From: Vairimorpha necatrix | Lineage: Eukaryota | DNA: 64,000 nucleotides | NCBI GenBank assembly: GCA_036630325.1 | Contig: CP142737.1 | Coordinates: forward strand, 620,001-684,000 | Direction of reading: 5' to 3' | Shown here: in pieces, positions 18,590 through 58,858 of the stretch | Layout of the letters: every line of letters starts with the position of its first letter | How positions within the stretch are numbered: the stretch's first letter is position 1 | The notes under the pieces: generated by a model | Databases searched by the model: none | What the model was told of the DNA's origin: nothing | The model's input: only the letters and a program-made list of their open reading frames with translations | Made by a program: the position numbers and the translations under genes

Positions 18590-18601
18590 GTTGAATTCAA
18601 C
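18590..18601. promoter_or_regulatory. 12-bp palindrome GTTGAATTCAAC at the PBS position
   Basis: 1 nt downstream of the 5' LTR end ...GACCTCA (18588). Confidence 0.8.
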
Positions 18602-22651: not shown

Positions 22652-22926
22652 TCATCCCAGAGAACTACCTCGGGACGGGACACATCCCTGTGCACGACCT
22701 TAGTATGCTTTAAAAAATTCCCTAACTTTTGTGTTTAATGTTCATTTTATCCATTGGTTTAGTCTTAATTTTGATTCATTCACAACAGTTTCCTTTCTCT
22801 ATTTTTGAAAAAAGGGACCCACAACTGCAAAATTGTTAGCTAGTGCTGATTATAGCATGTTTTTTTTATTGATTCTTTTTATATTCAAAAAATATCATCA
22901 TAAAGTAAAAAATACTGAAACCAATG

Positions 22927-35395: not shown

Positions 35396-35454
35396 TAATA
35401 GTTGTTCTGCAATTTTGATAAAGATTGGTGCTTTCTCATTTACAAGCATGTTTT

Positions 35455-37709
35455 TGTGGTATCCCGGGGAAACCCTCTCGGTTATAAAGTAATATTCTAA
35501 AATACTTTTAATAAATTGTTTTTTATTTGTTACAGTCCCGCTGGACTCTCTAACATGACGCTCTTTGGTCCTCTCATCCATCTCCTTTTATGTACCCTTC
35601 CTTTTCTGAAAATATATTTATAGTAAATTTTATTCATGAAAATTCAATGATAGTTTTGACAGGGAAGGAAATAAAATAAATGTTGAAGACTAACAGTCTA
35701 CAACATCCTGCCCCCTCTCAAAGCTTTAGCTGTTTCCTGTGAAACCATTCTACTAATCCAAGTACTTTGTACCATAATCCATTTTTTCCCTTTTGCACAC
35801 CTTGTATGGTCCTATAAATTTTTTATCAAGTTTGTTTCTTGAAAAATTCTTCACATAAACAATGTCTTCGTTTTTTGGCACCTGGTCATAAATTTTTACC
35901 TTGATCATTTTATTTCTAGATCTCTCTGTATTGGTATTTCCCTTTTTTCTAAAAGGATCATAAAATCTTATATCGGTACTTTTATCTCGATATTTTACTA
36001 CAGTATCGAACTGCTCTTTTAATTTTTTATTAGTAGTTTTAACAGCATTACATTCTCCTACTACTTCCATAATTTTATTATTTTTAATCCAACTACCTTT
36101 TCCAAATGCTTTATTTCTTTCATTCTTTTGTTTATTCCTGATATATTTAATATTAATATCTTTAGTTTTCGCTGTATAATTTTTTACTTTTATCTTATCT
36201 TCTTTTTCGATTTTTTTATCTTCCACTATGCAAATTCTTTCAATCATTGCCTTGTCTAATGTCTTTTCTTCTATTTCTTTGTATTCAATAAATTTAATCA
36301 ATTCATTATCACACATTACCACTTTATTTTTGTAGTCTAGAATACAATTATTACCAAATAAAAAATCTCCACCAAAGATTACATCATGCATACATTTATC
36401 AAAAATATATGGCTTAATAATGTAATCTCTATCTACACCTTCAAATTTAAATTCAGTTGATCTATTAGTAGCCATCACCTCGCCATTTGCTATAACTGTT
36501 TTAATTAACTTATTCTTTTTTGACTTTAAATTTAATTTATGGACTAGTTCTTTAGATATGAAGCTTCTGCTAGCTCCACTATCAAGTAATATTTTTATTT
36601 TTAAGCCATTTATTATGGCTCTTACCCTCGTTCCACTGATGGGATCTTTCACTTCTTCCATAATATTCATTTCATCACTTCTTGTTTGGCGGTTATCATA
36701 ATGCGCCTTTTTATCTTTATTTAGAAAACAATCAACTGAGTTGTGCCCATTGTGCTTACAATATCTGCACCATTTCTTTTGTACAGGGAAATTATTGTAA
36801 CTAAAATTATTAGTAGCTGTTTCGTGGTTTCTCATATCCATGTTGTTGTTTCTTAACTTTAAAATTTCTTCCTCCATCGTCTTTAACTTCTTCATCTATG
36901 CATCCATTTATGCATCAAGACTTTCAATTAGTATTCTCTTCGTTTTGCTTCCTAAACCCTTCTTGAAGCATTCCCATAGCTTCCTGTTGTATTCTTCTCT
37001 GCTTATCTTATGGGCAATACTATAATATTTTATATAACTATTGATGTATTCATAATACTCACTTATCGACTCAAAATTTTCTTGTCTTGCACTGGATAAT
37101 TTATCAATCCATTCTTCCGCTCTATCAATACTATAAACTCTACTTAGAATTCTTTCAGTAATTTTACTTAATTCTCCTTTAAATACTTTATCATCAATTG
37201 ACTTATCATTTATTAAATCTCTTAAGATGAGCTCATACTGCTCACTGTTCCATTTATTTCTTAAACTTATTTTTTCGAATGTTTCTAGCCATTCACACAT
37301 ATCAAAACTATAAATATCCTCTATGATATTTAACTCGGTCTCGATCTTCATATCCGTTCCTATAACGGTGTAACTTAATTTCACTTTCTTCTTGTTAACC
37401 TCACTATGGTTAATCTTTTTGTAGCTCGTGCTCAAAATTCTCGCACTTGAATTCAAGCTGTGGTATCCCGGGGAAACCCTCCCGGTTATAAAGTAATATT
37501 CTAAAATACTTTTAATAAATTGTTTTTTATTTGTTACAGTCCCTCTGGACTCTCTAACATGACGCTCTTTGGTCCTCTCATCCATCTTCTTTTATGTACC
37601 ATTCCTTTTCTGAAAACATATTTATAGTAAATTTTATTCATGAAAATTCAATGATAGTTTTGACAGGGAAGGAAATAAAATAAATGATGAAGACTAACAG
37701 TCTACAACA
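35455..37709 (-). mobile_element. Non-autonomous Gypsy element (gag-protease, no RT/RH/IN core), palindromic-PBS clade
   Basis: 251-bp LTRs 35455-35705 and 37459-37709. TSD GTTTT/GTGTT. PPT GAGAGGGGGCAGGA. ORFs 36908..37585 and 35753..36895 (WCRYCKHNGHNSVDC, LLDSGA, integrase C-terminal tail). Confidence 0.93.
37446..37457. promoter_or_regulatory. 12-bp palindrome CTTGAATTCAAG at the PBS position
   Basis: 1 nt from the 5' LTR end (37459). Confidence 0.8.
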
Positions 37710-37716
37710 GTGTTTA

Positions 37717-40406
37717 TGGCGTGTTTACCGGGGAGCTTGCCTGTAGCAAGAAAGCATTCAATGATGCTACGGTTTTGATAGCCGTGAAAACCGGAGTTAA
37801 AAGAGTTAGAGTGAATAGATTGTTTATTGTTATATAAAGAGTTTTGTTTATCTGATTTGTAGAAGGAAGAGTGCTTGTTATTGTTCTGATGTTGTACCAT
37901 GTTTGTTCATGGAGTTTCTTTATTTATATACATGGTAACCAATAGGAAGAAATAAGATTTGGCTGACCAATAATAGTCGACCATAACTGATCGTTCCGAA
38001 GAAGCATCAGCGTTTAAGTATTTATTGGTTTTATATATCATGTGGTATGATCCATTATACCACATACTGGCCTCCTTCAGAACTTCAAATTTCGAATATG
38101 CGTCCATGTCTTATCGCCTTTGAGTCGTACCCAATTCCCTTTAGATCCAACTTCTTCAATTAACCTTTTTGGTCCATATTTGCGATCAAGTTTAGAGGCG
38201 GTCAAATTTCTTTTATAAACTGTATTTCCTTTATGAGAGGTGGAATATGCTTGATAGATTTTTGCTTTGGTGTGTATGTCTATGGCTTGTTTTCAATGTC
38301 ATAGAAATCTCGCTTATTGGCTATAATATATGGAGATGTTCGAATTCCTCTATTATAGTTTATGTTTAAAGTTTCCTCGGCTGTTTTAACTGTTTTTAGT
38401 ATACTTTGATTTTTATTAATGGATAGTATGAACGCGATAGTCTGATTTATTCGCTCTGAGATTCCGTTAGATTTGGGTGCATAAGTAGGTATCAATATAT
38501 GATTTATTCCTACTTCTTCAAAATAGTTCTTTAGTGCTGACGACGTGTATTGCCTGCCGTTATCTGATATTACGTGCTTAGGCTGTTCTTTTATTTTTGT
38601 CCAATAAATTATCGACTCGATTATTTGTCTTGTTTTAAAAGATTTAAAGAAAAATAATTTGGTCTCTCTTGAAAATATATCTGATATAGTCAGAATATAT
38701 CCTGTCTTTTCCTCAGGAGTTGAATTGTCTTTTTGTTCGTAATATTTGAACGGTCCGAATATGTCCGTCGATATCCGTTCATATAGCCTTAGTGATTCTA
38801 ATTTTGTATTTTTAAGCGTTTATAAGTACTTAATAATTCTTTGTCTTCTGAAACAATGGGTAAGCACGTGGTTTCGTATAATATTTCATCAAGTGACTCT
38901 TTGGTCGACTTCTCTGCGTCGATGAAAGGGATCTTTTTATTATTCTCCAAAACTAGCATTCTTTTGTTAATATTTAATATAGCATTGTTGGCGACAAGAA
39001 ATTCATATCCTATAATTAAATCTTCTGGTATTCTTTCTAACACATAAAACTTAACAAAAAATTCTTTTTCGTCAAGCGCTAACTTTGTTTCTACGGATAA
39101 GGATGTCGTTTCCTTAGTACCACTTCCAAATATCATGGTTACTGGTTTTGCCTCGATAGGTTTTAGATCTAATTCTTTTAATAATTTTTTATGAATATAA
39201 TTGTATGTTGCGCCTGTATCAATGAAAAATTGTAGCTTTTTAGAGTTCAACTTTCCCTGTATTTTGATTCCATCTTGAGTAATTGTTTTTAGTTCCGAAA
39301 TAAGTAAATTATTTTTCGGTTCTTTATCATTCCTATGCAGGGAACAGTCCTTTGTGTTATGAAATTTCGATTGGTGATACTTACACCATTTTTTGTTTGA
39401 AAAGGTTTTTTTTACTTTAGAGTCAGATATCGTGGTTGCACAGTATTGTTTAGCGTCTGTCAATTGTGCTATGATGGTTTCTTCCAATTCCGATAAAAAA
39501 TTAATTACTTCTTCGAATGAAGCCGTTTTAAGTCGTTGGTCTGTAATTTTTATTGTGGTGTGTGCACCTAGACCTTTAAAGAAAATTTCTTCTTGTTTTC
39601 TTTCTACCTCCTTCCTTGTCAATTCATTTACGTGTATATATCCTTCTAATTCTTGTAAAATTTTCTCCATATATTCGTTTATGGTTTTATAGTCCGTCTG
39701 CTTAATTTTATCTATTTTATTAGAAAGTATTCTGTATTTTGTTTTTGGGTAAAGTATATCAAGAAGCTGTTTTCTTAGAGCAATATAGCTATTCTTAGCA
39801 AGTTTTTCTTTGTACATGCTATCGTAAATTAAACTGTGGTAAATTTGTCCAGCTTGGGAGCCGTTCCACTTGTTATAACTAGAAAGTGTTTCAAAATCAT
39901 TTAGATTTCTTAGTGAAAGTTCTGTTTTAATATTATAAATTTTTTGTATATGCTCTCTGATGGTAGTTTCGGTTCCTTCTATGGTTCGCGTAAATTCAGC
40001 GTAGAAATGTTTATTTTCGATATGAACTCTTTTTTCGTATAGCCATTTGAGCTCAAATTGGCGTGTTTACCGGGAAGCTTGCCTGTAGCAAGAAAGCATT
40101 CAATGATGCTACGGTTTGGGGAGCCGTGAAAACCGGAGTTAAAAGAGTTAGAGTGAAAGGATTGTTTATTGTTATGGAAAGAGTTTTGTTTATCTGATTT
40201 GTAGAAGGAAGAGTGTTTGTTATTGTTCTGATGTTGTACCATGTTTGTTCATGGAATTTCTTTATTTATATACATGGTAACCAATAGGAAGAAATAAGAT
40301 TTGGCTGACCAATAATAGTCGACCATAACTGATCGTTCCGAAGAAGCATCAGCGTTTAAGTATTTATTGGTTTTATATATCATGTGGTATGATCCATTAT
40401 ACCACA
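37717..40406 (-). mobile_element. Internally deleted Gypsy element (gag-PR plus integrase core, RT/RH missing), palindromic-PBS clade
   Basis: 348-bp LTRs 37717-38064 and 40059-40406. TSD GTTTA. PPT GAAGGAGGCCAGTA. ORF 38798..39817 (WCKYHQSKFHNTKDC, FIDTGA), followed by integrase TDIFGP...SDNGRQY...SNGISER. Confidence 0.94.
40045..40058. promoter_or_regulatory. Palindrome ATTTGAGCTCAAAT at the PBS position
   Basis: 12-bp core 40046-40057 lies 1 nt from the LTR end (40059); it extends to 14 bp here. Confidence 0.8.
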
Positions 40407-42339
40407 GTTTAAAATATTCTTTTGTTTGTTAATTTATTCACGATTTGACATGTCATTGAAGAAATATTTGACAGATGATATTATTGACACCTGTTATTGT
40501 GATGTAGTCCATAACATCACAATATGCAAAGTACAGAGCAATAGGGAAGGTTGGTTTTGACGCAGAAAAAGACATTTTTAAAAAAGAATGTGTAAAAAAA
40601 AGAACAACGTAAACAAGGATTAGGCAAGTTTGAAATGGAAATTAAAGAAGAAGATGAACGTAATGAAAATAAAACTCTTAATTATTACAACGCTATTAGG
40701 TCCTTAACAAATACTTCAAATAAAGACCTCACAGTAGTAGAAAAATTGGGAAATTCGATGTACAAGCGCTAGTCGACTCATGAGCATGCGTCATCCTATT
40801 AAAGAAAATACGTTAGAAATATCAAACTGGAACACACAGGAAACCTTATCTCTGCAAACGGCAATTATGAAATAAAAATTTTGGGTATGACAAGACGAAA
40901 ATTCACGATCAGAAAAAGAGTTTTCAAAGAAAATTTTGGGTGCTTCTTTGGTATTCGATCGGAGATTTTTTTAAAAAAATTCCAACCCCCAAAAAATGAA
41001 AAATTCGGATTTTAAAATTTCTGATCGAATGCCGAAGAAAAGCACGAAAGTGAAAATCAAGCCAATACAGAGGCTTTTCTACGGTACTGACGATTGTTTG
41101 AACTCATTAATTGAGTTAGAAGTCTTTCTGAACAAAAAATATGTTTTAAATGCAATGAGATTTCAAATTTAGTAATATTTAATGAAAGAGGAATTAAAAA
41201 AGTAGTATACAGGTGCACAGACTATAAGTGCAGTGCAAAAGTATCCATAATAAAGGATGTAAGTTGCCTTTGAATAACTACTGCGAATTAATATTTTTAA
41301 TTATATGTAGAAGTAGTTATTTTGCATTAGAAGCAAAATTGGGAGTTTCGTCATCAACAGTAGCCACTTCAAAAAAACGACCTAGACAAATTTCGAAAAA
41401 AGATTGTCTAATAGTCTAATTATTGGTGGACCAGGAAAAATTGTCCAAGTTGATGAGTCTGTCATTTGTAGAAGATGTAAAATAAGATATCCAACAAGCT
41501 CAGATGATTAAATTCCTGACACAGTTTAGATATTGGGGATAGTAGAAGCTGATAATCACACAAACTTTTACATTACAAGAGTTGATAACAGAACCATCGA
41601 GTTTTTTAACAGAGGCTTTAAAATTTTAAATAGGTATAGGTTAATTTTATATAGTGATGGTCATCCAAGTTATCCAGGCGTAGAAGCAAACTTCGTCTCG
41701 AGCATAAGCTTGTAAACCATTCTATGGGGTTTAGATCTTCTGTTGGACTTATACCAACAATATTGAGAACATTTGGTCGCAATTAAAACCCGAAATGACC
41801 AAGGAACATGGAGTTAAGCGTAAAGAAGTTGATGCTTGGCTTATTAAATTTATGTTTAGGAAATTTAATTGTAAAGAAGACGATTGGGCTAAAGTTAGCT
41901 TTAGCTAACAAAAATGCATATAGGGTTTTTTTCTTTTTTTTTGCCCCTTCTTTTAAAAAAATGGAGGAGAGAAAATGATGAGGAAGGAACAAAAACAAAA
42001 ATTAGAACAATAAATTTAATAATGCATCAAAAACAGAATTAGATGCATTTCTTCAAAGCATATACCTAAACAAATAGTGTTTGGCACTATTGCAGACCTA
42101 TTTCGATTAGATATAGAATTTTTGAGTAATCTCCAATTACCTTCTATGGTATTGGTATGAACCTCAGTATTAGGATCTCGAAAGTGTAATGAGTGGTTGA
42201 CCATGTGATGTTGCTTGAAATCATTACCCAAGGAACGGCAAGCCTCCCACATATCGCTGTATATAGTACGTCCCATGCTCACATATTATAATAAAAGGTC
42301 AATAAGTGTTTTTATCTCTTTTTTTAATATACGTAATTA

Positions 42340-43578
42340 GGTTAAGTTCTCGACTTACCCCCCCCCCCCACCCCTAAAAAAAATAAAAAAAGGGGAAAAA
42401 ATAAAAAAAAATAAAAAAAGGGGAAAAAATAAAAAAAAATAAAAAAACGTTTAATTCTCGACTTAACCCCCCCCCCTTACCCCCCAAAAAAACAAAAAAA
42501 ATTATTCCACAATTGTAAAATCTATTTCAGGAATAATATCATAAGCTACAATACTAAAATTACCTATTTGAAAAAATTCTAACATTTTATCTAATAGATT
42601 TTCACGATATATTAATTTGAATCTGTTAATGTAAATCTTTCTTACAAGATTCATAATAGTACCATGACTAGTTCCGCCTTTTCTTAGTTCTCTTTTAATA
42701 ACCGACCACATTCCCTCTATAGTCTGAGTATGCGCACCAGTTATATTATCAACAAAATTTTGGCTGTGATTCACAGTCAAATGTAGATACTCATATTCTA
42801 CACAGATTGTTTGAATATCACTATATCCACGCCAACAATCTGTCACAATTGTGGTCCCCGGAGCAATTTTTCTTGTAATTAATTCAACAAGAGTAGCTCT
42901 TGTTCTATTTTCTACGATCTCAAAGAAAAAAGAATTTGCATCCCCTCTCACAACGCCTCCAACTGCCCATACTTGATATTGAAGAACCCTTCCCGCATGG
43001 TTTTTACTTTTTACAAGTAAAGTTTCATCAATTTCAACAATACAACCGACGCCGCCAATCGTTTGATTGTTTATATATGTTGAATAAGAGACGTACACGG
43101 CGTTATTAAAACGCGTAAACCATCTTGATACCGTACATTTACCTATATCAAGTTCTAACGTGGCGGCCAAATTACTTGAACCCTTTACCCATTCGCAAAG
43201 CAATATTAAAAGATCCTCAATGGGCAATTTTGAGTTCTTGAAAACGCTTTGTTTCATTATGGTTCCTTTGTTAGAACATTTTTTACCATCACGTCTTGAA
43301 TAACAACGATAGTTTTCAGTGTTGGTCCGATTTTGAGTCATTGGTATATTGCATTTATTGCACATAGGGACCCTCAAAATGTTTTTTGCAAATAAAAATT
43401 GCATTAACTCATTTTTTTTATAGATGAGTTTTCTAAATTCTTTAATTCTCATTATGGGTCAAATAATTTATTTTTTTATTTTTCCCCCTTTTTTTATTTT
43501 TTTTTATTTTTTCCCCTTTTTTTATTTTTTTTTATTTTTTTTAGGGGTGGGGGGGGGGGGTAAGTCGAGAACTTAACC
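42340..43578 (-). mobile_element. Young Merlin/ISXO2 transposon, copy 1
   Basis: TIR GGTTAAGTTCTCGACTTACCCC, perfect 8-bp TSD CGTAATTA, intact ORF. Confidence 0.96.
42502..43452 (-). CDS. ISXO2-like (Merlin) transposase
   Basis: 316 aa with CNKC..C..C, VEIDET, VTDCWRGY, VNHS and HTQTIEGMW. Confidence 0.95.
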   Translation of the reverse strand: MRIKEFRKLIYKKNELMQFLFAKNILRVPMCNKCNIPMTQNRTNTENYRCYSRRDGKKCSNKGTIMKQSVFKNSKLPIEDLLILLCEWVKGSSNLAATLELDIGKCTVSRWFTRFNNAVYVSYSTYINNQTIGGVGCIVEIDETLLVKSKNHAGRVLQYQVWAVGGVVRGDANSFFFEIVENRTRATLVELITRKIAPGTTIVTDCWRGYSDIQTICVEYEYLHLTVNHSQNFVDNITGAHTQTIEGMWSVIKRELRKGGTSHGTIMNLVRKIYINRFKLIYRENLLDKMLEFFQIGNFSIVAYDIIPEIDFTIVE

Positions 43579-43604: not shown

Positions 43605-45220
43605 GGTGACCGTAATTTTCGTCCCGGTGGTAGGGGTTAAAAAAATAAAAAAATAAAAAATCTCGGTTTTTTTATTTTTTTATTTTTTTAACCCCTACCA
43701 CCGGGACGAAAATTCCGAAAAAAAAATAAAAATAAAACTTTAATATTTCAATAATTTCAAAGACAAAATCTAAACCAAACCCTTCATCCACAGTTTTATT
43801 CAAAAAATCAGCTAGCCGAATCTCCTTTTCAATATATTTTTGTTTACGTTCAAAAACATGATTTAAAATTGTTTGTTGGATTATCTTGATTCGCACTATA
43901 TCTTCTTCATCCTTTAACTTGCTCACTAATAGATAAAAACTGTATCGACTTGTACCAAATGTGTTTTTAAAGGTATCATGCCAACCTTCAATCGCATTAT
44001 TAGTTCTTGGAAAATCTATATCCATATTATTTCTCGTGTGCCACAAATTCGGCGGAAAACGACATCCTAAATCAATATAATTTGTAAAGAAATAGGCATA
44101 TAACTCAGTCAAGCATTCAGGGAAATTTCTGTCTTGTTTTAGTTCCAAAAAAGTAGACAATATTTCGTCATATTCAACATATGCAAGTGCCGTAAGAGAC
44201 AAAACAAATTTTTTCACCATAGGTGAACATGTGTAAAAAGAAGAAAGTCCTGAACTTTTAACACGTCTATCAATAGCCTGGGCTAAGTGAAAAAGACAAC
44301 CCGAAATTTGACAATCCGGGAAAATTATTGAAAATGCTCTTATCGCAGCATACTCAAAATCGGTTTTTATCAACCTTGGGTTGAGCTCTGGAAACCTTCT
44401 ATTTAACATTTGAAACAAAAAACAATAGGTTTCAAAACTTTTATCTTTTAAAATTGCAAATATTATCGGAAATACATGCGCTTCACGGATAAAACTAATT
44501 GTGTAAAGTTGATAATATGGAATTGGAACCACCGTAAAGGTCCCATCCATCGCCCACATGTCATATAGAGCCAGTTTTTCCATAGCCGAATCTGTATAAA
44601 AAACTATTATACTGTCATTGGGTTTATCACTCCCGTAATTTTCAGGCCCATATCGATACCATTGTTCGCCTGTATGACTGATTAATAAATCAGCACATAA
44701 ACCCAATGTTTGGTTGGCGTATGGTTTTGGATTTAAGAAATTTAGCCTAGCTTTCCTTAATATCCTCGTAATAGGCTCAATAGGGCCTATTGCGGCGATT
44801 GTTTCTTCACCAGCTCCTCTTAAGGAAGAAAAAAAATGTTTCTAGGAGAATCTTTGCCAGAGATAATTTCCCGTTTCATTTTATCTATTTTATTCTTCCT
44901 ACAGACCTGTTCAGGATTTGGTTCATGATTATGAGGCGAAGAAATAATAAAGGATTCGAGATTATTGACGTAAACAATACTACTAATGGCCTTGGCATTA
45001 CAGCTTCGTACAATGCAGCGCCACTTTATAGTAGTATTGTTGATTCTTTTTTCTCGTAAATATATAGATTTTCATCTATTATTTGGTCCATATTTCTTTT
45101 GCTTTTAATGATCCTTTTTGTCCCGGTCATAGGGGTAAAAAATAAAAAAAGAAAAAAGTCCGTTTTTTTTATTTTTTAATTTTTTTAACCCCTATGACCG
45201 GGACGAAAAGACCGGGTACC
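43605..45220 (-). mobile_element. MULE transposon with fold-back ends
   Basis: Perfect 9-bp TSD GTTTTAAAG. Transposase 43672..44706 (AMDGTF, QLYTI, TDFE, GCLFH, RTNNAIEGWH). Frameshifted N-terminus (WRC..C) to about 45090. Confidence 0.93.
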
Positions 45221-45716
45221 GTTTTAAAGAACGCTCTATCATTCCAAAACACCTAACCCCTTTCACTAGTTTACCTCTATTATACTTATTTTTTCCTACT
45301 TTTGTTTCATCTATTTCTACTATAATATCTTCCCGGCCTATCTTTCCCAAAGATGATAAATAATTATCATAAATGTCTATTTCCTATAATTTAATAAAAA
45401 TAAACGATATTGAAGGTTTTGAACAACATAAAATTTGGCTAATATACTTACGAGGATAGCCCAGAATCCACAAATTAAGTACCTGCAAAATTTTGATATG
45501 ATCGAGTCTAAAGTTTTCAAAGAATGTACCTTTCCACATAGAAACTGTCTTCTTACAGTCCTTCCAAGTACATTTTAAGATAGCACCCTGTTTACTAAGT
45601 GTGGTATCTTTGTGCAGCGCAGATCCACAAGAAGAATTGTTTGTTTGTTTACACAACAAACATATAAAACTATAAATATAATTTCAGCCCTTACCCATAC
45701 ATAAACAACAACAACG

Positions 45717-48700
45717 ATGAACACCAGACGAACTAAACAGAAAACAATCACAGGGAAGAACCCTATATCTAACAACATAAATAAAAAAATTGTAAATAAA
45801 AATATTTTAGAGACATACTTCGAATTAGGATATGTCAATTTGAGCTCAAAAGATGAGAACCTAAACGAAATAAAGATGAAACAAAAAACTGACCAAGAAA
45901 CGAAATTAAAAGGATTAACCTTCTCAATGAAGATAGAAGGATTAGAACATAATTTAACACAAGAAGTGAAAATTATAGAACAGATAGAAGTAATCGACAT
46001 CATAAAATGGTGCGATGAATTTGAAAATTTGATAAATATGAACAAATGGAACAAACAAATACAATTTGCAATACTAAAACAACTAATAACAGATTCGAGA
46101 TTAGTAGATTTTGAAAAGAATCAGTCTTGGAAAGAAATCAAGCGATATTTGATAGCTTTTAAGTTTCCGCCAGAGGAGCGTAGATATTATAGGAGAAAAT
46201 TATTAAACATACATCAGACTCACTATGAAAAGATGCAAGACTATTACGACGCAATCAAGGAGATTTTAGTAATTATAAAAACCATGGAACAGTTAACTGA
46301 AGCTGAAGTAGAAAAGTTATTCGACGAAGCCTTCCACGCAGGACTAGAAAAGTTTACATACGGTCGAGTAATAGAATATGGTCTAGGAACTTATCGGGAC
46401 TCTTTTGAATTTTTGAAAAGTCTTGAGAACAAGATCAGAATCAGAGCTAAAGAGATGAAAGAAACACGCAACTCAGACAGTTACGAGAGCAAAAGCGTTT
46501 TCAAAAAAGACGACAATAATACGAATAAATTTACTGACAAATATTGCAAGTTTCACAAGCACTGTAATCACACAACAGAACAATGCACAAAATACGATAA
46601 GGATTTTTATAACAAACAGAAAGGAAAAAATCAGAAAAATAATTTCTATTACATCAAGGAAAAGGTGAATAACTTTGAGAAGACACAAATCAAGGGAAAG
46701 ATAAACAATACAGTAATTGAAATAATGATAGACAATGGAGCTAATAGAAGTTTTTTGAGTGAAGAAGCAGCTAAGGAATTAAAACTTGACATGTATGAAA
46801 CCGAAGAAGTAACACTCCAATTCGGAAACGGATCGACAGGACGCACTCATAAGAAAGCCAGAGTAGCGATAAAATTAGAAGGAGTAAAGAAAAAAATTGA
46901 AGAAGACGTATACATATACAACGAACTACCTGTAAAAATGATTCTAGGCAACGATTTTTTGCTTAACAATGGCTGGCTACTGGATTACAAAAATAAGTGT
47001 GTAATGGTTCATAAAAATATGGTACCTATGATAGGAGCTGATAAGATCAATGAGGACGAAATGGATGCAATATTGTATGAACGAGTCTTATTGATCGAAG
47101 ATGCTAAAATTGTGGAGAACTCGGAAATACCATACAAATTAAAAGAATATGTGAAAAAGAATGATGATTATAAAAAAATCAACATAAAACCTATAAAACT
47201 ATACATTGAGGATAAAATTAAAAACCATAAGTTAGACCTGAGATATTATACGGTCCCATTAAAATACGAACAAGAAGCAAAGAAAGAAATATTACGACTT
47301 CTAAATAACGACATAATTGAAAGAAGCAGAAACTACTATGCGAGTCCTTCTTTCTTTATTGAAAAGAAAACAAAGGAACTAAGATTAGTAGTTGATTATA
47401 GAATAGTCAATAGATTCATCAAGGATGAGATATGCTTAATACCAAAAATTTTCGAAAACTTACTTAAACTCGGAGGAAACACGTTCTTTAGCAAGATTGA
47501 TTTAAAGAACGGCTTTAACCAGCTGGAACTGGACGAATATAGTAGAGATATTACAAGTTTTACCATATTTGGAGAACAATACAGGTACAAAAGAATACCT
47601 TTCGGCATCAAATCTGGCCCTAAGTTGTTTCAGAAAACAATAAATCTAATACTAGATGGGATTGAAAAAATAATAATATATATAGATGATATTGTGATAT
47701 ATGGAGAGACACCTAGCGAACATAACCAGACCTTGTCTCAAGTATTAGATCGACTCTCTGTATATAACGTGAAAATAAACTTTGAAAAGAGTACGTTTGC
47801 AACAAGACGACTAGAAATATTAGGTAATATAATAGAAGGTAATCAAATACGAATTGATACGAAAAATATAGATAAACTGATAAATGAGAATGCAACCCCA
47901 ACATCTAAGAAAGAAATCCAAAAAATAATGGGAATAATAACATGGTATCGTAATTTTATACCAGATGTTAGCAGAAGAATTGCTTGCATATCAATGCTGC
48001 TACAAGCAAATACTAAAGAAAAGTGGGGAGAACCTCAAACTAAAGCCTTAAAGGAGATTAAGCACGAAATAAAAACGTCAGCACAACTAAATTTACCAGA
48101 TTTTAAAAGAGTATTTATTATACAATGTGACGCCTCAAATGAAGGCATGGGAGCAGTTATTTATCAGGCCCATGGAGTCATAGGGTATTACAGCAGGAAA
48201 TTCAACAACACGGAGAAAAATTATACGATTGTCGAAAAGGAAATGTTTGCAATCATTAAAACATTAGAATTTTACAGAGTGCTTATTCTGGGATACAGAA
48301 TAGAGATACAGACAGACAGTAGAAACTGCATTTTTGAAAATAAAACGATATCTAAAAGAACGGAACGTTGGAAACTTTTATTGAACGAATACGACGTAAC
48401 GGTACGCAACATTGAAGGTGCGACTAACCACATAGCAGATAAACTATCAAGATGCTTTACGATTAAGCTTTCACACGACGAATTAGAGTATTACATAAAA
48501 CGATATTTAAAAGAAAAAGATGGAAAATATCTATTAGACAAACACGGTAGATACATTGTGCATGAAGAAAAGGCCGATAAATTTATCGAAGAAATACACA
48601 AATTTACTGTACACCCAGGAGTGACAGTTATGTATCAGAATATTAAAAGAAAGTACAATATAAAAAACATAAAAAAGAGAATTTTGCAAGTTGTCAGCAA

Positions 48701-49529
48701 ATGCATTGTTTGCATTAAATGCAAGAAAATCAAAACAAAGAAGAAGAAAAGCTTAAAAATAGAATCAGACCAATTAATGAAGAAGATAAGTACGGACATT
48801 TTTGGCCCGTTTGAAATAGTAGAGTACGAACACTCGTTACCTAATGAAAAAGCATTTTTTTTGACGATAACTGATATTTACAGTAGGTATACAAGAGTAA
48901 TTTTAATGGAAAAAACAACTACTACAAAATTAATAAAGGAATTTAAAAAATGGATCGAAGATTTCGGTTGCCCACAAACAGTAATCTGCGACAATGGAAA
49001 GCAATACACCAGCAAAGAGTTTGATATATTTTTAGAAAAACAAAACATTAATAAGATTGCAACACCTATGTATCATCCTTCGTCAAATAGCATCAGTGAA
49101 CGCCTAAATCAGACAATAGCAGAAGTGATACGAATGTACAGAGGAGAAAATATAGCGAAAGTAACGAAAATGATTATGAGAAGATTGAATATCAACTTCC
49201 ATAGAGGGATCCATGAACAACCCATAGCAATAGTAACCGGATATTCCCCGTTTGACTTAAACAAGCAGGTTGGAAAGCATGAACCGCACACTATAAAAAA
49301 TATTGATAATAAAACAAGCAACTGGGAAATGACGAACAACGAAGACATTAATAGATTCAAAATTGGAGATAAGATCTTCTTGAAAAATTTTACAGGATCA
49401 AAAATTGATGATTGTTATTTAGGACCATACAAGGTCACAGTAGTTAGTAAGAAGGGAAGATGGCTAAAGATAAGTGGAAAAAATGAATGGATACACATTG
49501 ACAATGTAAAAAGGATGACCAGCTATTGA
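45717..49529 (+). CDS. Gag-Pol polyprotein
   Basis: 1270 aa with YCKFHKHCNHTTEQC, MIDNGA, RIPFG/YIDD, QCDAS, HPG...CIVC and TDIFGP/CDNGKQY/SISER. Confidence 0.97.
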   Translation: MNTRRTKQKTITGKNPISNNINKKIVNKNILETYFELGYVNLSSKDENLNEIKMKQKTDQETKLKGLTFSMKIEGLEHNLTQEVKIIEQIEVIDIIKWCDEFENLINMNKWNKQIQFAILKQLITDSRLVDFEKNQSWKEIKRYLIAFKFPPEERRYYRRKLLNIHQTHYEKMQDYYDAIKEILVIIKTMEQLTEAEVEKLFDEAFHAGLEKFTYGRVIEYGLGTYRDSFEFLKSLENKIRIRAKEMKETRNSDSYESKSVFKKDDNNTNKFTDKYCKFHKHCNHTTEQCTKYDKDFYNKQKGKNQKNNFYYIKEKVNNFEKTQIKGKINNTVIEIMIDNGANRSFLSEEAAKELKLDMYETEEVTLQFGNGSTGRTHKKARVAIKLEGVKKKIEEDVYIYNELPVKMILGNDFLLNNGWLLDYKNKCVMVHKNMVPMIGADKINEDEMDAILYERVLLIEDAKIVENSEIPYKLKEYVKKNDDYKKINIKPIKLYIEDKIKNHKLDLRYYTVPLKYEQEAKKEILRLLNNDIIERSRNYYASPSFFIEKKTKELRLVVDYRIVNRFIKDEICLIPKIFENLLKLGGNTFFSKIDLKNGFNQLELDEYSRDITSFTIFGEQYRYKRIPFGIKSGPKLFQKTINLILDGIEKIIIYIDDIVIYGETPSEHNQTLSQVLDRLSVYNVKINFEKSTFATRRLEILGNIIEGNQIRIDTKNIDKLINENATPTSKKEIQKIMGIITWYRNFIPDVSRRIACISMLLQANTKEKWGEPQTKALKEIKHEIKTSAQLNLPDFKRVFIIQCDASNEGMGAVIYQAHGVIGYYSRKFNNTEKNYTIVEKEMFAIIKTLEFYRVLILGYRIEIQTDSRNCIFENKTISKRTERWKLLLNEYDVTVRNIEGATNHIADKLSRCFTIKLSHDELEYYIKRYLKEKDGKYLLDKHGRYIVHEEKADKFIEEIHKFTVHPGVTVMYQNIKRKYNIKNIKKRILQVVSKCIVCIKCKKIKTKKKKSLKIESDQLMKKISTDIFGPFEIVEYEHSLPNEKAFFLTITDIYSRYTRVILMEKTTTTKLIKEFKKWIEDFGCPQTVICDNGKQYTSKEFDIFLEKQNINKIATPMYHPSSNSISERLNQTIAEVIRMYRGENIAKVTKMIMRRLNINFHRGIHEQPIAIVTGYSPFDLNKQVGKHEPHTIKNIDNKTSNWEMTNNEDINRFKIGDKIFLKNFTGSKIDDCYLGPYKVTVVSKKGRWLKISGKNEWIHIDNVKRMTSY
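45839..45850. promoter_or_regulatory. 12-bp palindrome TTTGAGCTCAAA at the PBS position
   Basis: 1 nt downstream of the 5' LTR end ...TATGTCA (45837). Confidence 0.8.
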
Positions 49530-50115
49530 TTTTTGGTGGAAAGAGCAGATTGTGGTATCTTTGTGCAGCACAGATCCACAAGAAGAATTGTTTGTTTGTT
49601 TACACAACAAACATATAAAACTATAAATATAATTTCAGCCCTTACCCATACATAAACAACAACAACGATGAACACCAGACGAACTAAACAGAAAACAATC
49701 ACAGGGAAGAACCCTATATCTAACAACATAAATAAAAAAATTGTAAATAAAAATATTTTAGAGACATACTTCGAATTAGGATATGTCACTAAGCAACCTC
49801 ATTCTACCATTACACACTTTGCATAACTGATTCTTTTTTTTGTCAAATAAAATATTATAGACTGTTTCCATTTCTGCTCTAGTCATAATTGTCTTCTCCA
49901 TTTTTTTAGAAAAGAGGGCAAAAAACGAAAACCCCCTATATGCATTTTTGTTAGCTAAAGCTAACTTGGGCCTACGATTGTAATAGTTTTATGATTGTTA
50001 TCTTGATTTATTATCTTATTTATTAAATTATATTTCTAGTATTTTTTCCTATTTTCCATTTTTTACGCTACAAGGGGGATGGTCTTTGGGTCTGATCGAA
50101 TACCAAAGAAGCACC

Positions 50116-51295: not shown

Positions 51296-52599
51296 GGTTA
51301 AGTTCTCGACTTACCCCCCCCCCACCCCTAAAAAAAATAAAAAAAAATAAAAAAGGGGGAAAAAATAAAAAAAAGGGGAAAAAATAAAAAAAGGGGAAAA
51401 AATAAAAAAAATAAAAAATTTGACCCATAATGAGAATTAAAGAATTTAGAAAACTCATCTATAAAAAAAATGAGTTAATGCAATTTTTAATTGCAAAAAA
51501 CATTTTGAGGGTCCCTATGTGCAATAAATGCAATATACCAATGACTCAAAATCGGACCAACACTGAAAACTATCGTTGTTATTCAAGGCGTGATGGTAAA
51601 AAATGTTCTAACAAAGGAACCATAATGAAACAAAGCGTTTTTAAGAACTCAAAATTGCCTATTGAGGATCTTTTAATATTGCTTTGCGAATGGGTAAAGG
51701 GTTCAAGTAATTTGGCCGCCACGTTAGAACTTGATATAGGTAAATGTACGGTATCAAGATGGTTTACGCGTTTTAATAACGCCGTGTACGTCTCTTATTC
51801 AACATATATAAACAATCAAACGATTGGCGGCGTCGGTTGTATTGTTGAAATTGATGAAACTTTACTTGTAAAAAGTAAAAACCATGCGGGAAGGGTTCTT
51901 CAATATCAAGTATGGGCAGTTGGAGGCGTTGTGAGAGGGGATGCAAATTCTTTTTTCTTTGAGATCGTAGAAAATAGAACAAGAGCTACTCTTGTTGAAT
52001 TAATTACAAGAAAAATTGCTCCGGGGACCACAATTGTGACAGATTGTTGGCGTGGATATTGTGATATTCAAACAATCTGTGTAGAATATGAGTATCTACA
52101 TTTGACTGTGAATCACAGCCAAAATTTTGTTGATAATATAACTGGTGCGCATACTCAGACTATAGAGGGAATGTGGTCGGTTATTAAAAGAGAACTAAGA
52201 AAAGGCGGAACTAGTCATGGTACTATTATGAATCTTGTAAGAAAGATTTACATTAACAGATTCAAATTAATATATCGTGAAAATCTATTGGATAAAATGT
52301 TAGAATTTTTTCAAATAGGTAATTTTAGTATTGTAGCTTATGATATTATTCCTGAAATAGACTTTACAATTGTGGAATAATTTTTTTTGTTTTTTGGGGG
52401 GGTAAGGGGGGGGGTTAAGTCGAGAATTAAACGTTTTTTTATTTTTTTTTATTTTTTCCCCTTTTTTTATTTTTTTTTATTTTTTCCCCTTTTTTTATTT
52501 TTTTTATTTTTTCCCCTTTTTTTATTTTTTTTTATTTTTTCCCCTTTTTTTATTTTTTTTTAGGGGTGGGGGGGGGGGGGGTAAGTCGAGAACTTAACC
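51296..52599 (+). mobile_element. Young Merlin/ISXO2 transposon, copy 2
   Basis: Same TIRs as 42340-43578, perfect TSD TTTTTATT. Confidence 0.96.
51430..52380 (+). CDS. ISXO2-like (Merlin) transposase
   Basis: 316 aa; differs from 42502..43452 at two residues (F/I, S/C). Confidence 0.95.
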   Translation: MRIKEFRKLIYKKNELMQFLIAKNILRVPMCNKCNIPMTQNRTNTENYRCYSRRDGKKCSNKGTIMKQSVFKNSKLPIEDLLILLCEWVKGSSNLAATLELDIGKCTVSRWFTRFNNAVYVSYSTYINNQTIGGVGCIVEIDETLLVKSKNHAGRVLQYQVWAVGGVVRGDANSFFFEIVENRTRATLVELITRKIAPGTTIVTDCWRGYCDIQTICVEYEYLHLTVNHSQNFVDNITGAHTQTIEGMWSVIKRELRKGGTSHGTIMNLVRKIYINRFKLIYRENLLDKMLEFFQIGNFSIVAYDIIPEIDFTIVE

Positions 52600-54539: not shown

Positions 54540-57500
54540 TGTCAAGGAACAATTCTCCAGTGGTCCTAAGATTACCCTGGAGACCAGAGAATACTATTCT
54601 ATAGGTATTCTCTTCCTCTTCCCAATAATGTTTTTTGGAGGGAAAATATTGTATATTTTCCCTCCGACAAACATAAAAGAAATTCATGCCCAGAAGGGTA
54701 TGAAGGATAATAAAAAATATGGTTTAAAACATTCTTCTCGGTCTGTTGGGAAACCAACAGACCACAATGGTGGTAACGATGATGAGGATAAGAGCGATGA
54801 TCTCGACAACATCCTTTCTCAAATGAAAAAACTATGTCTTCAGAACAGATGGCTAGAATTTACCGGCGAAGATCTAAACAAAGCCGAAGACTTTCTGTCT
54901 CAATTTCGAGAAATTGAAGATGTGTACTCTCAAGCGAAGACGCTAGATATTGCCAAGTCAAAACTAAAAGGCAAAGCGTTGAAATGGTTTAAAGCTTTTG
55001 AGGGCGAGGAGATTGTAGATTACGAGACATTCAAATCCCACTTTAATAAAAAATACCTTAAAAAAAAACTAGTGGAAGACGTAACAGATCTATTCATGCA
55101 CCTATACGTAGAGGGTCCGAAGGAAAGCGACATCTTGAGTTACGCTTATGACCTAAAAAGGTGTGCTAAAGGAAGCATTGAGCACTTTGAGAGATCTAAG
55201 ATTGCGATTGGAAGAAACTCCCCCGAGATATTAAAGGAGGCGATCAGTGAAACCAAAGAGTGGATAGAGTTACTAGAACTCGTAGAAGAAAAGGATTTTT
55301 TAATAAATAAATACCTAAAGAAAAGGAAAACTTTTTATAAAAAGCCACAGAATGAAGTAACCTGTCAAGAAATGAAAGAATATAAAACTGTCCCCAAGAA
55401 AGCAGTACAGACAAATTCTTCATTAATTCTAAAGATAGGTAGAGTGGCTAAAAACGATAATTTAGCGGATGTCCGAGCAAGGATTAATTTTTTTTCAGGG
55501 AGAGAAAAGATTGCTGCGCTCATAGACACGGGAGCAGAAATTAATTGCATTAATAAAAAGAAAGCCCAATTATTGGGGCTGAATCCAAGAAAAGAGACGC
55601 TGAATATAGTAGGAGTGGGCGGTACAGTGAAATCAGAAGGCATAGTGGAATTTAGTGTCAAAGAGCCTAAAACTAAGAAATCAAGAATAGTAGAAGCACA
55701 TGTAGTAGCAAACTTACCAGAAGACCTTATTATTGGCCTCGCAGATGTTCTAAATCTGAACTTACTCAAAATTCTTGATAAGATGAGAAATGCGTTAATA
55801 ACGAAATCAGTCTGCACAACAACTCCCGAAGTACTCGAAACTCAAACTGTAGACGTCGGAGAAGAAGACACGGCACAGGAGGACAAAGAAAAATTTAATA
55901 AACTTATCTCAAAGTATCCAGCTGTTTTCTACAATAATGATTTAAAATCAAGCTTAGATATTGAGCACGCCATAGAAATAACAAATGACTTTTCGGAAGT
56001 AAGAAATATTCAATACAGAAGATCTCCAGAACAAAACGAGATTATTGAAAGTAAGATTCAAGAGTTTTTGAGTAAAGGATTTATTGAGAACAGTGAATCA
56101 GACTATACTTCCCCGGTGGTTCTTGTCAAGAAACCTAATGGTGATATTAGATTTTGCATAGACTATAGAAGGTTGAATAAAATCACAAAGAAGATGATCT
56201 ATCCTATTCCACTTGTAGAAGAAACTATAGAAGAATTACAAGGAGCATCTATATTTACAGTATTGGACTTGGAATCTGGGTACCATCAAATAAGAATTCG
56301 GGAAAAAGATAGATATCTTACAGCTTTTAGGAGTAGGACAGGAACGTTTCAATGGGTTAGGATGCCATTTGGACTCGTGAATGCACCCTTTACATTCCAG
56401 AAGATAATGAATTCTATACTGTCTCCGTACCTACATAAATTTGTACAAGTGTATCTAGACGACATTATGATATACTCTAGATCGACTGAAGAGCACGTAA
56501 AGCACATTGAAGCAGTTTTTGAAATTTTAAACAAATTGAAATTGAAAGTTAATCACAAAAAATGTAAAATCGGAAAGAATACGGTAAATTTTTTGGGATA
56601 TACGATAAATAAGAATGGAGTAAGTATACCACTTGAGCAACAGACGAAATGTCTTAATTTAAAAATCCCAGCCACTCTTAAAGAAACTAGAGCCTTTATT
56701 GGGTTCATAAACTATTTTAGAAAATTTATAAGGAATTATACAGATATAATGGCTCCTATCTATGACTGCTTGAAGAAAGGTAAATTTAAATTTTCTGAAG
56801 AAGCAAAACAAAGTGTAGGGAAAATAAAAGAAATTATTACGAGCTCTCCCGTTCTCAAGTTACCGGACTTCAATAAGAGATTTATCTTATACACAGATGC
56901 ATCCAACCTTTACATAGGAGCAACACTGATGCAAAGATACGAGGAGACTGAAATGCCCGTATATTTTATCTCAAGGAAATTAAATACTGCTGAAATTAAT
57001 TACACCGTAACCGAAAAGGAATGCTTGGCAATAATATGGAGCATATCCCAGTTCCGGATTTACCTAACAAATACTTTTACAATTCGAACAGATCATCAAG
57101 CCCTCAAATGGCTGCTGAGTTATAAAGAGAGCACTGGCAGATTAATGAGATGGATTCTCACACTCGAAAACTACTCATATGACATCGAATATATTAAAGG
57201 CAAAGAGAACATTATAGCGGACGGACTAACGAGATTTGTTCATGTAGTAAATTATGAAGATGAACTAGAATTATCGGCCGAGAGTCGTAAAGAAATGATT
57301 TTAAAATGTCACGAAGAGTGTGGACATGGCAGTATTTATCCAACATATGCTTTAGTTCTCGATAAAACAAAATGGAAAGGTATGTACGCAGATATTAAAC
57401 AGGAACTCGAAAAATGTCAGGTGTGTCTAAAATTTAATTTAAAAAGAACACCAAAGCAACATCATAGAATTCGACTCAAGGACCCATTTTCACTGATAGG

Positions 57501-58548
57501 AATTGATATGGTAGGTCCTCTACCTAAGTCGGAAAATGGGAAAACATATTTAATAGTCGCCACGGATTATCTAACAAGATGGTGCGAAGCAAAAGCCGTG
57601 AGAAATAAATCGGCTAAGACGGTAGCTAAATTTATTTTTGAAGAAATAGTATGTAGACATGGTCCGCCCAACGAATTACTATCAGATAGAGGACTTGAAT
57701 TTTTGAACAACACGGTCAAGGAATTATGTGGAATATTTAAAATAAAGAAATCTTTTACTTCAGCTTACCACCCACAATGCAATGGCACGGTAGAGAGAAC
57801 CAACCAATCATTAGTAGCAAAACTGGCTAAAATGATAAATGGAAGGTGGAAAGACTGGGATGAATATTTGGAACTGGCTCTGTACGCATACAGAATTTCT
57901 CCGAGGAAGAAGACAGGATTTTCTCCTTTTGAATTATTATACGGACGGAAACCCTTATTATGGGAGCATCCCGAAAGAGAACTCTTATGTTTAGAAGATA
58001 ATTTTTTAATATTTGAAAGATTGAAGCAAACCCGTGATACTATGTTACAAGCCGAAAGAGAGGCCAGAGAAAGGGAAATAGTAGAGGGGAAAGAATTTGC
58101 ACTTCAAGTAGGTGATGTGGTATTAAGAAGAAAACCACCTATAAGCATTAGAAATAAACTAGACAGCAAATTTGAAGGCCCATACAATATAACGAAAGTC
58201 GGGAGGAAAGGTGCATACGAGATAATAAATCCCAATAATGACGTGTTTAAGGTAAATGGGAAAGACTTAAAAAAGATGGACTTTGAGCTGGAAACATGGG
58301 AGCCAATAAAGAAGGGGGGAGTGTCAAGGAACAATTCTCCAGTGGTCCTAAGATTACCCTGGAGACCAGAGAATACTATTCTATAGGTATTCTCTTCCTC
58401 TTCCCAATAATGTTTTTTGGAGGGAAAATATTGTATATTTTCCCTCCGACAAACATAAAAGAAATTCATGCCCAGAAGGGTATGAAGGATAATAAAAAAT
58501 ATGGTTTAAAACATTCTTCTCGGTCTGTTGGGAAACCAACAGACCACA
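54540..58548 (+). mobile_element. Intact Ty3/Gypsy LTR retrotransposon (4009 bp) with a tRNA-type PBS
   Basis: 227-bp LTRs 54540-54766 and 58322-58548, apparently identical. TSD CATAC. PBS TGGTGGTAACG at 54768. PPT AAAGAAGGGGGGAG. Confidence 0.97.
54700..58386 (+). CDS. Gag-Pol polyprotein; likely start is the ATG at 54700 inside the 5' LTR
   Basis: In frame with track ORF 54367..58386. Motifs LIDTGA, RMPFG/YLDD, YTDAS, HEECGH..CQVC, GIDMVGP/SDRGLEF/NGTVER and GPY. The stop lies inside the 3' LTR. Confidence 0.93.
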   Translation: MKDNKKYGLKHSSRSVGKPTDHNGGNDDEDKSDDLDNILSQMKKLCLQNRWLEFTGEDLNKAEDFLSQFREIEDVYSQAKTLDIAKSKLKGKALKWFKAFEGEEIVDYETFKSHFNKKYLKKKLVEDVTDLFMHLYVEGPKESDILSYAYDLKRCAKGSIEHFERSKIAIGRNSPEILKEAISETKEWIELLELVEEKDFLINKYLKKRKTFYKKPQNEVTCQEMKEYKTVPKKAVQTNSSLILKIGRVAKNDNLADVRARINFFSGREKIAALIDTGAEINCINKKKAQLLGLNPRKETLNIVGVGGTVKSEGIVEFSVKEPKTKKSRIVEAHVVANLPEDLIIGLADVLNLNLLKILDKMRNALITKSVCTTTPEVLETQTVDVGEEDTAQEDKEKFNKLISKYPAVFYNNDLKSSLDIEHAIEITNDFSEVRNIQYRRSPEQNEIIESKIQEFLSKGFIENSESDYTSPVVLVKKPNGDIRFCIDYRRLNKITKKMIYPIPLVEETIEELQGASIFTVLDLESGYHQIRIREKDRYLTAFRSRTGTFQWVRMPFGLVNAPFTFQKIMNSILSPYLHKFVQVYLDDIMIYSRSTEEHVKHIEAVFEILNKLKLKVNHKKCKIGKNTVNFLGYTINKNGVSIPLEQQTKCLNLKIPATLKETRAFIGFINYFRKFIRNYTDIMAPIYDCLKKGKFKFSEEAKQSVGKIKEIITSSPVLKLPDFNKRFILYTDASNLYIGATLMQRYEETEMPVYFISRKLNTAEINYTVTEKECLAIIWSISQFRIYLTNTFTIRTDHQALKWLLSYKESTGRLMRWILTLENYSYDIEYIKGKENIIADGLTRFVHVVNYEDELELSAESRKEMILKCHEECGHGSIYPTYALVLDKTKWKGMYADIKQELEKCQVCLKFNLKRTPKQHHRIRLKDPFSLIGIDMVGPLPKSENGKTYLIVATDYLTRWCEAKAVRNKSAKTVAKFIFEEIVCRHGPPNELLSDRGLEFLNNTVKELCGIFKIKKSFTSAYHPQCNGTVERTNQSLVAKLAKMINGRWKDWDEYLELALYAYRISPRKKTGFSPFELLYGRKPLLWEHPERELLCLEDNFLIFERLKQTRDTMLQAEREAREREIVEGKEFALQVGDVVLRRKPPISIRNKLDSKFEGPYNITKVGRKGAYEIINPNNDVFKVNGKDLKKMDFELETWEPIKKGGVSRNNSPVVLRLPWRPENTIL

Positions 58549-58553
58549 CATAC

Positions 58554-58858
58554 TGTGGTATTAACTGCCAAATTATTATTTTTATTCTTATTTTCCCTAC
58601 AAGTGAATTTTCTAGAAAATATTTTACTATAAATATTTTCTCTTTATTTTACTCCACACAGAAAGGATGAGAGAAATGAAGAATCATCCAAGGAACTATG
58701 GGAGGCCGCAAGACAGTCTACCCCCTCACAAGAGGATAACCAATTACCCGCATGGGATGAACAATATTAACAATTCAACTAAAACAAATTTTGGTGCAGG
58801 GAGAGGCATTCTTGAATGCTATTTACAAAATGGCCATCTCCTTGGTGGTAACATTACA
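58554..58858 (+). repeat. Solo LTR with palindromic-clade signature
   Basis: TGTGGTAT...TTACA; encodes GILECYLQNGHL near its end. The flanks CATAC and GTATC do not match. Confidence 0.78.

Follow-up and report, generated by a model that had tools for sequence, protein, structure and literature searches.

There are few steps at which long terminal repeat (LTR) retroelements rely on a defined RNA of the host, and the priming of reverse transcription is among them; to our knowledge the exceptions to tRNA priming are few, namely half-tRNAs and self-priming of the Tf1 type. How, then, would an element prime that carries a palindrome in place of the tRNA site? The question is raised by a stretch of 64,000 nucleotides from the microsporidian Vairimorpha necatrix (contig CP142737.1, positions 620,001 to 684,000; hereafter the window), which is AT-rich (about 32% G+C) and crowded with mobile elements, compact LTR retrotransposons among these. 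Five of them, here termed A to E, all bear a perfect 12-bp palindrome that starts 1 nt past the terminal CA of the 5′ LTR, at the place of the primer-binding site (PBS).

As determined with Pfam, the polyproteins P0001, P0002 and P0003 contain an aspartyl protease followed by the domains RVT_1, RT_RNaseH, Integrase_H2C2 and rve. With this order of protease, reverse transcriptase, ribonuclease H (RNase H) and integrase, the palindrome-carrying elements are Ty3/gypsy retrotransposons (Metaviridae), the assignment also given in an initial annotation of the window, and A to E represent five families of one clade. Polyprotein identity among A, B and E is about 35%, with 22-28% in the gag parts, and self-BLAST at E ≤ 1e-10 returned no match between the LTRs of A to E. 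In each of the five, the 3′ LTR is preceded by a purine tract that closes with (G/C)CAG and two further bases. Translation of gag starts at a codon within the 5′ LTR and the frame continues across the LTR end, its phase being the same in every element; the R-U5 segment encodes a conserved N-terminal motif, (I/V)(L/I)(E/D)x(Y/F)(F/L).

Element E, on the forward strand, is intact. Its 238-bp 5′ LTR (45600-45837, TG..CA) contains the gag ATG at 45717 and is followed by a spacer A (45838) and the palindrome TTTGAGCTCAAA (45839-45850; gag frame AAT TTG AGC TCA AAA). The open reading frame (ORF) for the gag-protease-reverse transcriptase-RNase H-integrase polyprotein extends over 45717-49529 (stop-to-stop frame 45705-49529, 1274 amino acids); the polypurine tract GGTGGAAAGAGCAGAT (49535-49550) and the 3′ LTR (49551-49788) come next, and the target-site duplication CTAAG flanks the element at 45595-45599 and 49789-49793. 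Element A (11223-15329, reverse strand) is likewise intact. Its 5′ LTR (15105-15329) begins with TA, not TG, and holds the gag ATG (15199-15201) of an ORF of 1285 amino acids that runs to 11467; spacer A (15104), palindrome GTTAAATTTAAC (15092-15103), polypurine tract (11448-11460) and 3′ LTR (11223-11447) follow, and the duplication ACTAT occupies 15330-15334 and 11218-11222. The two LTRs of a pair differ by a single base in both A (99.56% identity) and E (99.58%).

The remaining three elements are damaged. B (18371-22702, forward strand) is degraded and consists of a 5′ LTR (18371-18588), spacer A (18589), palindrome GTTGAATTCAAC (18590-18601), polypurine tract (22169-22181) and composite 3′ LTR (22182-22702), with the duplication GTATG at 18366-18370 and 22703-22707. 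C (35455-37709, reverse strand) is internally deleted; its 5′ LTR (37459-37709) is separated by a spacer G (37458) from the palindrome CTTGAATTCAAG (37446-37457), the polypurine tract lies at 35706-35719 and the 3′ LTR at 35455-35705, and the duplication is not clean. D (37717-40406, reverse strand) has an internal deletion and a frameshift, and comprises a 5′ LTR (40059-40406), spacer A (40058), the same palindrome TTTGAGCTCAAA as E (40046-40057), a polypurine tract (38065-38078) and a 3′ LTR (37717-38064), flanked by TAAAC at 40407-40411 and 37712-37716. The LTR ends were set without using the palindrome: by the 3′ LTR and the 5-bp target-site duplications in A, D and E, by a related LTR that ends in ...CACGACCTTA and abuts the second GTATG copy in B, and by the 3′ LTR alone in C.

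In two public runs (X1 and X2), contigs bridge the flanks of E at 45593-49790 and omit 4194 bases, equal to the element plus one duplication; E is therefore a discrete, probably recent insertion. The polyprotein of E shares 66% identity with a Vairimorpha necatrix protein. One X2 contig bridges C plus D (35452-40408) and omits 4955 bases, and an uninterrupted paralogue of the C/D target is found in the window near 29248-29419. Among the differing letters listed from contigs of four runs (40 of 843), none is located inside a palindrome, a count that says nothing on palindrome variants.

Within the palindrome all 30 pair cells are Watson-Crick, with no G-T cell. Three of the six pairs (1/12, 4/9 and 6/7) change on both sides and none on one side only; pair 5/8 is an invariant A-T, and pair 6/7 is either AT or GC. 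The covariation score of 0.600 compares with 0.230 in shuffles and is reached by 0 of 500, and sliding the partner by 1-3 columns in either direction leaves 10-60% of the cells paired. Pairing stops at the palindrome edges: positions 0/13 are Watson-Crick in one element of five, D, the palindrome of which extends to 14 bp. The initial annotation had described five perfect palindromes 1 nt past the 5′ LTR CA, LTRs that cannot be aligned with one another, compensatory swaps at the three pairs named, and two intact elements with near-identical LTRs, and all of these descriptions are borne out. Anchored on the LTR end, 6 of 12 columns are invariant in the palindrome compared with 5 of 48 in the flanks, and near the LTR there is no other conservation at the nucleotide level in A to E. 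As 12-bp palindromes are common in the window (60 centres, overlapping AT runs counted, versus about 33 in shuffles), the signal is the fixed position and not the presence of a palindrome.

The palindrome is situated within the gag reading frame, about 40 codons in, and is not a by-product of coding. Given the peptide and the elements' own codon usage, its probability is 0.0023-0.029 per element (product over five, 3e-12). The central Asn-to-Ser change uses AGC, not AGT, and thereby restores pair 6/7. Solo LTRs akin to that of D (61582-61921, with the duplication ACTCT, and about 9359-9707) have no palindrome after them; the palindrome is therefore part of the internal region, as a PBS is. TGG, with which a Ty3/gypsy PBS complementary to a host tRNA 3′ end begins, is absent from the PBS place in A to E, and A, B, C and E have no TGG-type PBS in the first 45 nt past the LTR. 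The earlier statement that such a site is missing thus stands for the PBS place and needs one correction, in that D carries TGG at +14 (TGGCTATACG), a feature not shared by A, B, C and E.

Three neighbouring families provide an internal contrast, and a stronger one than was claimed when the family at 54540 was first singled out, since the tRNA-type 10-mer TGGTGGTAAC is invariant in all three although they are divergent. Family F (54540-58548, forward strand) is intact, with LTRs at 54540-54766 and 58322-58548, the duplication CATAC, a spacer A (54767) and the tRNA-type PBS TGGTGGTAACGATG (54768-54781). F′ (31625-33302, forward strand), a deleted and diverged relative of F, has its 5′ LTR end at 31854, a spacer A at 31855 and the PBS TGGTGGTAACGGTG at 31856-31869. 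G is a fragment (58554-58852, forward strand) with an LTR that begins TGTGGTATTA at 58554, and carries TGGTGGTAAC at 58843-58852. Like A to E, these families are compact and single-ORF, begin gag within the LTR and have a 5-bp duplication. F and F′ also have the 1-nt spacer, and F, F′ and G all share the codon phase of the palindrome, which occupies the place required of a PBS. Unlike the palindrome, TGGTGGTAAC is not self-complementary: the predicted energy is −1.8 kcal/mol for the F site, compared with −9.4 to −15.3 kcal/mol for self-duplexes of the 12-mers. The LTR of G encodes the ILExY motif of the clade (ILECYL) yet is coupled to the tRNA-type TGGTGGTAAC, a combination which suggests a change from one type of PBS to the other in the clade or close to it. 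Invariance is the expectation for a fixed host partner, and variation that for element-encoded partners. As the tRNA-type site is invariant across families whereas the palindrome drifts with its symmetry kept, a duplex with both strands encoded by the element is indicated, and this suggests that the partner of the PBS is provided by the element itself and not by the host.

Judging from proteins, the palindrome appears to be a clade-wide feature in microsporidia. A gag-protease profile built from the five families and the Vairimorpha protein matched 116 cluster representatives at E ≤ 1e-30; among the 150 matches listed, 38 reach the N-terminal region. Windows of five residues were scored for their ability to encode a perfect 12-nt palindrome in the codon phase seen in our stretch of DNA. 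At the column of the hidden Markov model aligned to Asn-Leu-Ser-Ser-Lys of E, 26 of 36 relatives can do so, against a background of 3388 of 101458 windows (3.3%) in all matched proteins and at most 24% at other columns with at least 15 sequences. Within ±6 residues of the anchor, 34 of 38 are palindrome-compatible, versus 5-14 of 38 at eleven control anchors. Pairs 1/12 and 2/11 can be satisfied jointly in 29 of 36 relatives compared with a shuffle mean of 14.5, a value as high being found in 0 of 20000 shuffles; the covariation that the initial annotation had proposed to look for across relatives is hence seen at the protein level. Leu (TTR) at codon 2 pairs with a codon 5 beginning with A, Met or Ile with one beginning with T (Phe, Tyr, Leu, Ser), and Val with one beginning with C (Pro or Leu). 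With Lys at codon 1 the partner is Thr or Ile, with Asn it is Lys, Asn, Ser or Arg, and with Met it is Thr. Altogether the relatives' proteins imply about ten palindrome core types, the Ile codons implying TA at 6/7, and they span at least five microsporidian genera (Vairimorpha necatrix, Nosema granulosis, Dictyocoela muelleri, Hepatospora eriocheir and Pancytospora epiphaga). An alignment search retrieved no relative from metagenome, viral or prokaryote genome contigs. Twenty-two metagenome gypsy loci (L001-L022) matched in the protease part alone and are devoid of the clade gag, tblastn with 10 gag queries being negative, and were not used.

With our confidence evenly divided for and against, we propose that the palindrome is the PBS and that two copies of the element RNA pair through it. 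Two co-packaged genomic RNAs would come together antiparallel at the palindrome to form a 12-bp RNA duplex. Since synthesis must begin opposite the spacer, at the LTR end, the primer would require its 3′-OH at position 12, and one RNA would be cleaved at the duplex's 3′ edge, with the RNase H of the element as the probable nuclease, in analogy to Tf1. The new 3′-OH, paired with position 1 of the partner palindrome, would then be extended over the spacer, U5 and R to yield minus-strand strong-stop DNA. Only one of the RNAs could be cut, because a cut template would no longer carry the PBS on which the second strand transfer depends; the uncut partner would be the template. To halt plus-strand strong-stop synthesis at the primer's 5′ edge, either a further cut or shortening of the primer to 12-13 nt would suffice. 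Tf1 supplies a precedent for the chemistry, and trans priming between co-packaged Tf1 RNAs is reportedly the subject of a study by Haag, Lin and Levin in 2000, to go by its title alone. That a microsporidia-wide Ty3/gypsy lineage dispenses with host RNA in this manner, its genomes pairing via a 12-bp palindromic PBS and one of them being cut and sacrificed as primer, is a more tentative proposal, which we rate a little short of even.

A number of points weigh against priming by a palindromic PBS. The nuclease and its cut are pure inference, and an extra rule is needed to stop plus-strand strong-stop DNA at the primer edge. Palindromy as such would be equally expected of a signal for dimerisation alone, or of the site of a dimeric protein on double-stranded DNA. 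In family A the AU-rich 12-bp duplex is weak (−9.4 kcal/mol). In predicted homodimers of 193-nt leaders all 12 pairs are interchain in A to E and none in F, but the F leader also gains 9.2 kcal/mol as a dimer and cofolding turns many hairpins intermolecular, so that this prediction discriminates little. Outside the window the palindromes are deduced from amino acids and not read from DNA, the 38 relatives are linked by descent, so that shuffles overstate their independence, and 10 of 36 fail to fit when the anchored column is taken exactly. Finally, the comparison with host tRNAs covers one tRNA gene, that of the window.

Retroviral dimer initiation sites (DIS), such as the loop palindrome of HIV-1 SL1, measure about 6 nt, are exposed in a hairpin loop and lie downstream of the tRNA PBS. 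They share with A to E a palindrome in the 5′ leader, which pairs two genomic RNAs in retroviruses and would do so here, and the palindrome of A to E could be an extended-duplex analogue acting solely in dimer initiation or packaging, with another primer in use. Covarying self-complementarity is what a dimer linkage site requires, the palindromes do pair in the predicted homodimers, and the comparison with a DIS is also made by the authors who described a palindromic site in fungal GalEa elements (PMC5445492). We nevertheless consider this explanation unlikely. No other candidate PBS is left within 45 nt past the LTR of A, B, C and E, where TGG does not occur, nothing else is conserved in the flanking columns, and a DIS would have no cause to keep a distance of exactly 1 nt to the LTR end, in register with the TGG sites of F and F′. 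A retroviral DIS is not known to keep a fixed distance from U5. In retroviruses it coexists with a tRNA PBS (PMC5445492), whereas A to E are without a separate PBS and without conserved loop presentation: their predicted monomer folds have no common presentation of the 12-mer and no conserved loop.

The perfect Watson-Crick symmetry, with no G-T in any cell, and cores such as GAATTC, GAGCTC and AAATTT, which resemble typical dimer sites, would also suit a site, recognised as double-stranded DNA just inside the provirus, for a homodimeric protein of host or element that could regulate LTR transcription or mark chromatin. A protein site, however, should keep its sequence as well as its symmetry, while here three of six pairs change and the proteins imply about ten core types; moreover, the fixed +2 position in the PBS register is left unexplained and the site is located some 40 codons into gag, downstream of the promoter. 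We regard this role as quite improbable.

An intramolecular variant, in which a cut 3′ of the palindrome leaves a 5′ fragment that folds back on itself (4-bp stem, 4-nt loop) to prime its own U5-R, would equally set the 3′-OH opposite the spacer, and the predicted monomer folds often render the 12-mer as just such a 4-bp hairpin. The loop positions 5-8 of this hairpin need no pairing, yet 5/8 is invariant A-T and 6/7 covaries (AT and GC, with TA implied). Covariation of pair 6/7 therefore requires a full-length duplex, formed either by two molecules or by double-stranded DNA, and not to a 4-bp snap-back hairpin; as the AU-rich stem would in addition be very weak, we give little credence to self-folding.

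Self-priming as in Tf1 of Schizosaccharomyces pombe (Tf1/sushi group, with Tf2) deserves comparison. Tf1 needs a PBS that can pair with the first bases of the transcript, within the LTR, and its RNase H cuts the RNA duplex between bases 11 and 12 to yield the primer (PMC7175516). The likeness to A to E consists in a single ORF, the absence of a tRNA site, the use of the element's own RNA as primer (proposed for A to E) and a duplex of 11 bp versus 12 bp at the PBS position immediately past the 5′ LTR. In Tf1, however, the partner is the transcript 5′ end in the LTR and the site is not palindromic, whereas that of A to E is self-pairing; also unlike Tf1, the gag family of A to E is microsporidia-specific, and Pfam finds no chromodomain in P0001 or P0002 (E ≤ 0.001). 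The best complement of the 16 nt past the LTR in the LTRs of A to E spans 5-7 nt in Watson-Crick pairs and 5-9 nt with G-U, which 45-300 of 300 shuffled LTRs equal or exceed, in keeping with the initial annotation, which saw no copy of the palindrome in the LTRs; complements of the palindrome elsewhere within each element reach at most 9 nt. With no LTR complement beyond chance in any element the Tf1 geometry fails, and because it leaves palindromy unexplained too, pairing of the first 11 or so nucleotides of the transcript with the site is very improbable.

A host tRNA, tRNA fragment or other small host RNA as primer, although the rule for LTR elements, with half-tRNA sites without TGG on record (PMC6317226), is just as hard to credit, because the four DNA-verified and about ten inferred variants would each need a 12-nt palindromic host RNA of their own, the adjacent tRNA-type sites are invariant across families, and the window's single tRNA gene (2172-2244) matches the palindromes over at most 6 nt (6-7 nt at most when the F PBS is included). 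This gene, a tRNA-Met (CAT) called by ARAGORN, is for the most part contained in a 770-bp repeat (2186-2959) with an inverted copy at 17294-18051 (85% identity). Rfam is silent on it at the gathering score and reports no family at that score anywhere in the window.

The novelty first attached to the site was overstated, as a covarying palindrome at the PBS place is known from the fungal Ty1/copia elements GalEa (PMC5445492). Their Conserved Hairpin Site is described as a palindrome with no tRNA match and a mechanism called unknown, variants of which (CTGATCAGT and CTAATTAGT) keep their symmetry; its authors state there that no known model fits the palindromic site. In the same source, GalEa resembles A to E in LTRs of about 235 bp, a 5-bp duplication, a single ORF and the absence of an LTR complement. 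A to E nevertheless differ from this precedent in superfamily, length, spacer, coding context and the absence of a hairpin partner. GalEa is a copia element, with integrase before reverse transcriptase, as opposed to the gypsy order of A to E; its palindrome is 9 nt long (10 with the last A of the LTR) and abuts the LTR, compared with 12 nt, a 1-nt spacer and a location inside gag; and a second complementary copy (CHSeq2) 12-41 bp downstream forms a hairpin there. No such copy exists within 100 nt downstream in any of the five elements, where the best 9-mer has 2-3 mismatches and is matched by 146-298 of 300 shuffles. In the searchable literature (subscription papers and supplements lying outside its scope) we found no description of a palindromic PBS in gypsy or microsporidian elements, and the main text of a survey of microsporidian transposable elements (PMC4202319; supplements outside the scope) does not contain PBS, primer binding, palindrom or tRNA.

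Two further palindromes in the window were considered and set aside. TACTGATCAGTA (918-929) contains the exact GalEa core, (A)CTGATCAGT, but is preceded by neither an LTR end nor CA and is probably due to chance, and TAGTTAAATTTAACTA (63792-63807) adjoins a MULE-type repeat and not an LTR.

Every palindrome-type LTR also begins with a hairpin, the stem of which starts at LTR base 1 (TGTGGTAT-loop-ATACCACA). The sites are 15329, 37709, 40406, 61921 and 9707 on the reverse strand and 18371, 45600 and 22353 on the forward strand, and in family A the stem TATGATAT/ATATCATA displays a compensatory change. Predicted stabilities of the eight hairpins range from −4.9 to −10.3 kcal/mol; they are equalled by at most 11 of 200 shuffles for A to E and the two D-like solo LTRs, and by 21 of 200 for the LTR at 22353. 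The tRNA-type families F and F′ lack the structure, 108 and 146 of 200 shuffles, respectively, being as stable. The hairpin may be a second hallmark of the lineage, with a possible part in, for example, plus-strand priming or integrase binding.

Several of the elements are inserted next to the start of another LTR. The duplication of D ends 2 bp before the LTR of C (37710-37716), that of F abuts the LTR of G (58549-58553), and the partial 3′ LTR of B is followed 5 bp on by another, full LTR (22348-22352). Insertions of this kind may reflect targeting to LTR starts or the formation of tandem LTRs. The other mobile-element genes of the window comprise ORFs for IS1595/ISXO2-like DDE transposases (Merlin-like; 27956-28837, 30303-30824, 42502-43458, 51424-52380 and 60125-60760), with inverted copies of the Merlin-like element at 42375-43578 and 51296-52506, MULE transposase ORFs (43672-44841 and 62476-63198) and a FLYWCH zinc-finger ORF (4922-5461). 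A perfect 34-bp palindrome, GATCAGAATTTTTTTTTAAAAAAAAATTCTGATC, is present at 61090-61123.

The observation of a covarying palindrome at the PBS place is well supported, its nearest precedent being the palindromic site of GalEa, and the kind of system to which it would belong is non-tRNA, self-encoded priming. Annotation tools that rely on the PBS will miss or misclassify the palindrome lineage. If the proposed priming is true, a self-palindromic site would be a third solution beside half-tRNAs and self-priming of the Tf1 type, and the palindromic site of GalEa could be explained as convergent or related biology. Dimerisation of the genome and priming would become a single event, and the element would be freed from the sequence of host tRNAs, which would be useful in the fast-evolving, reduced genomes of parasites and after horizontal transfer.

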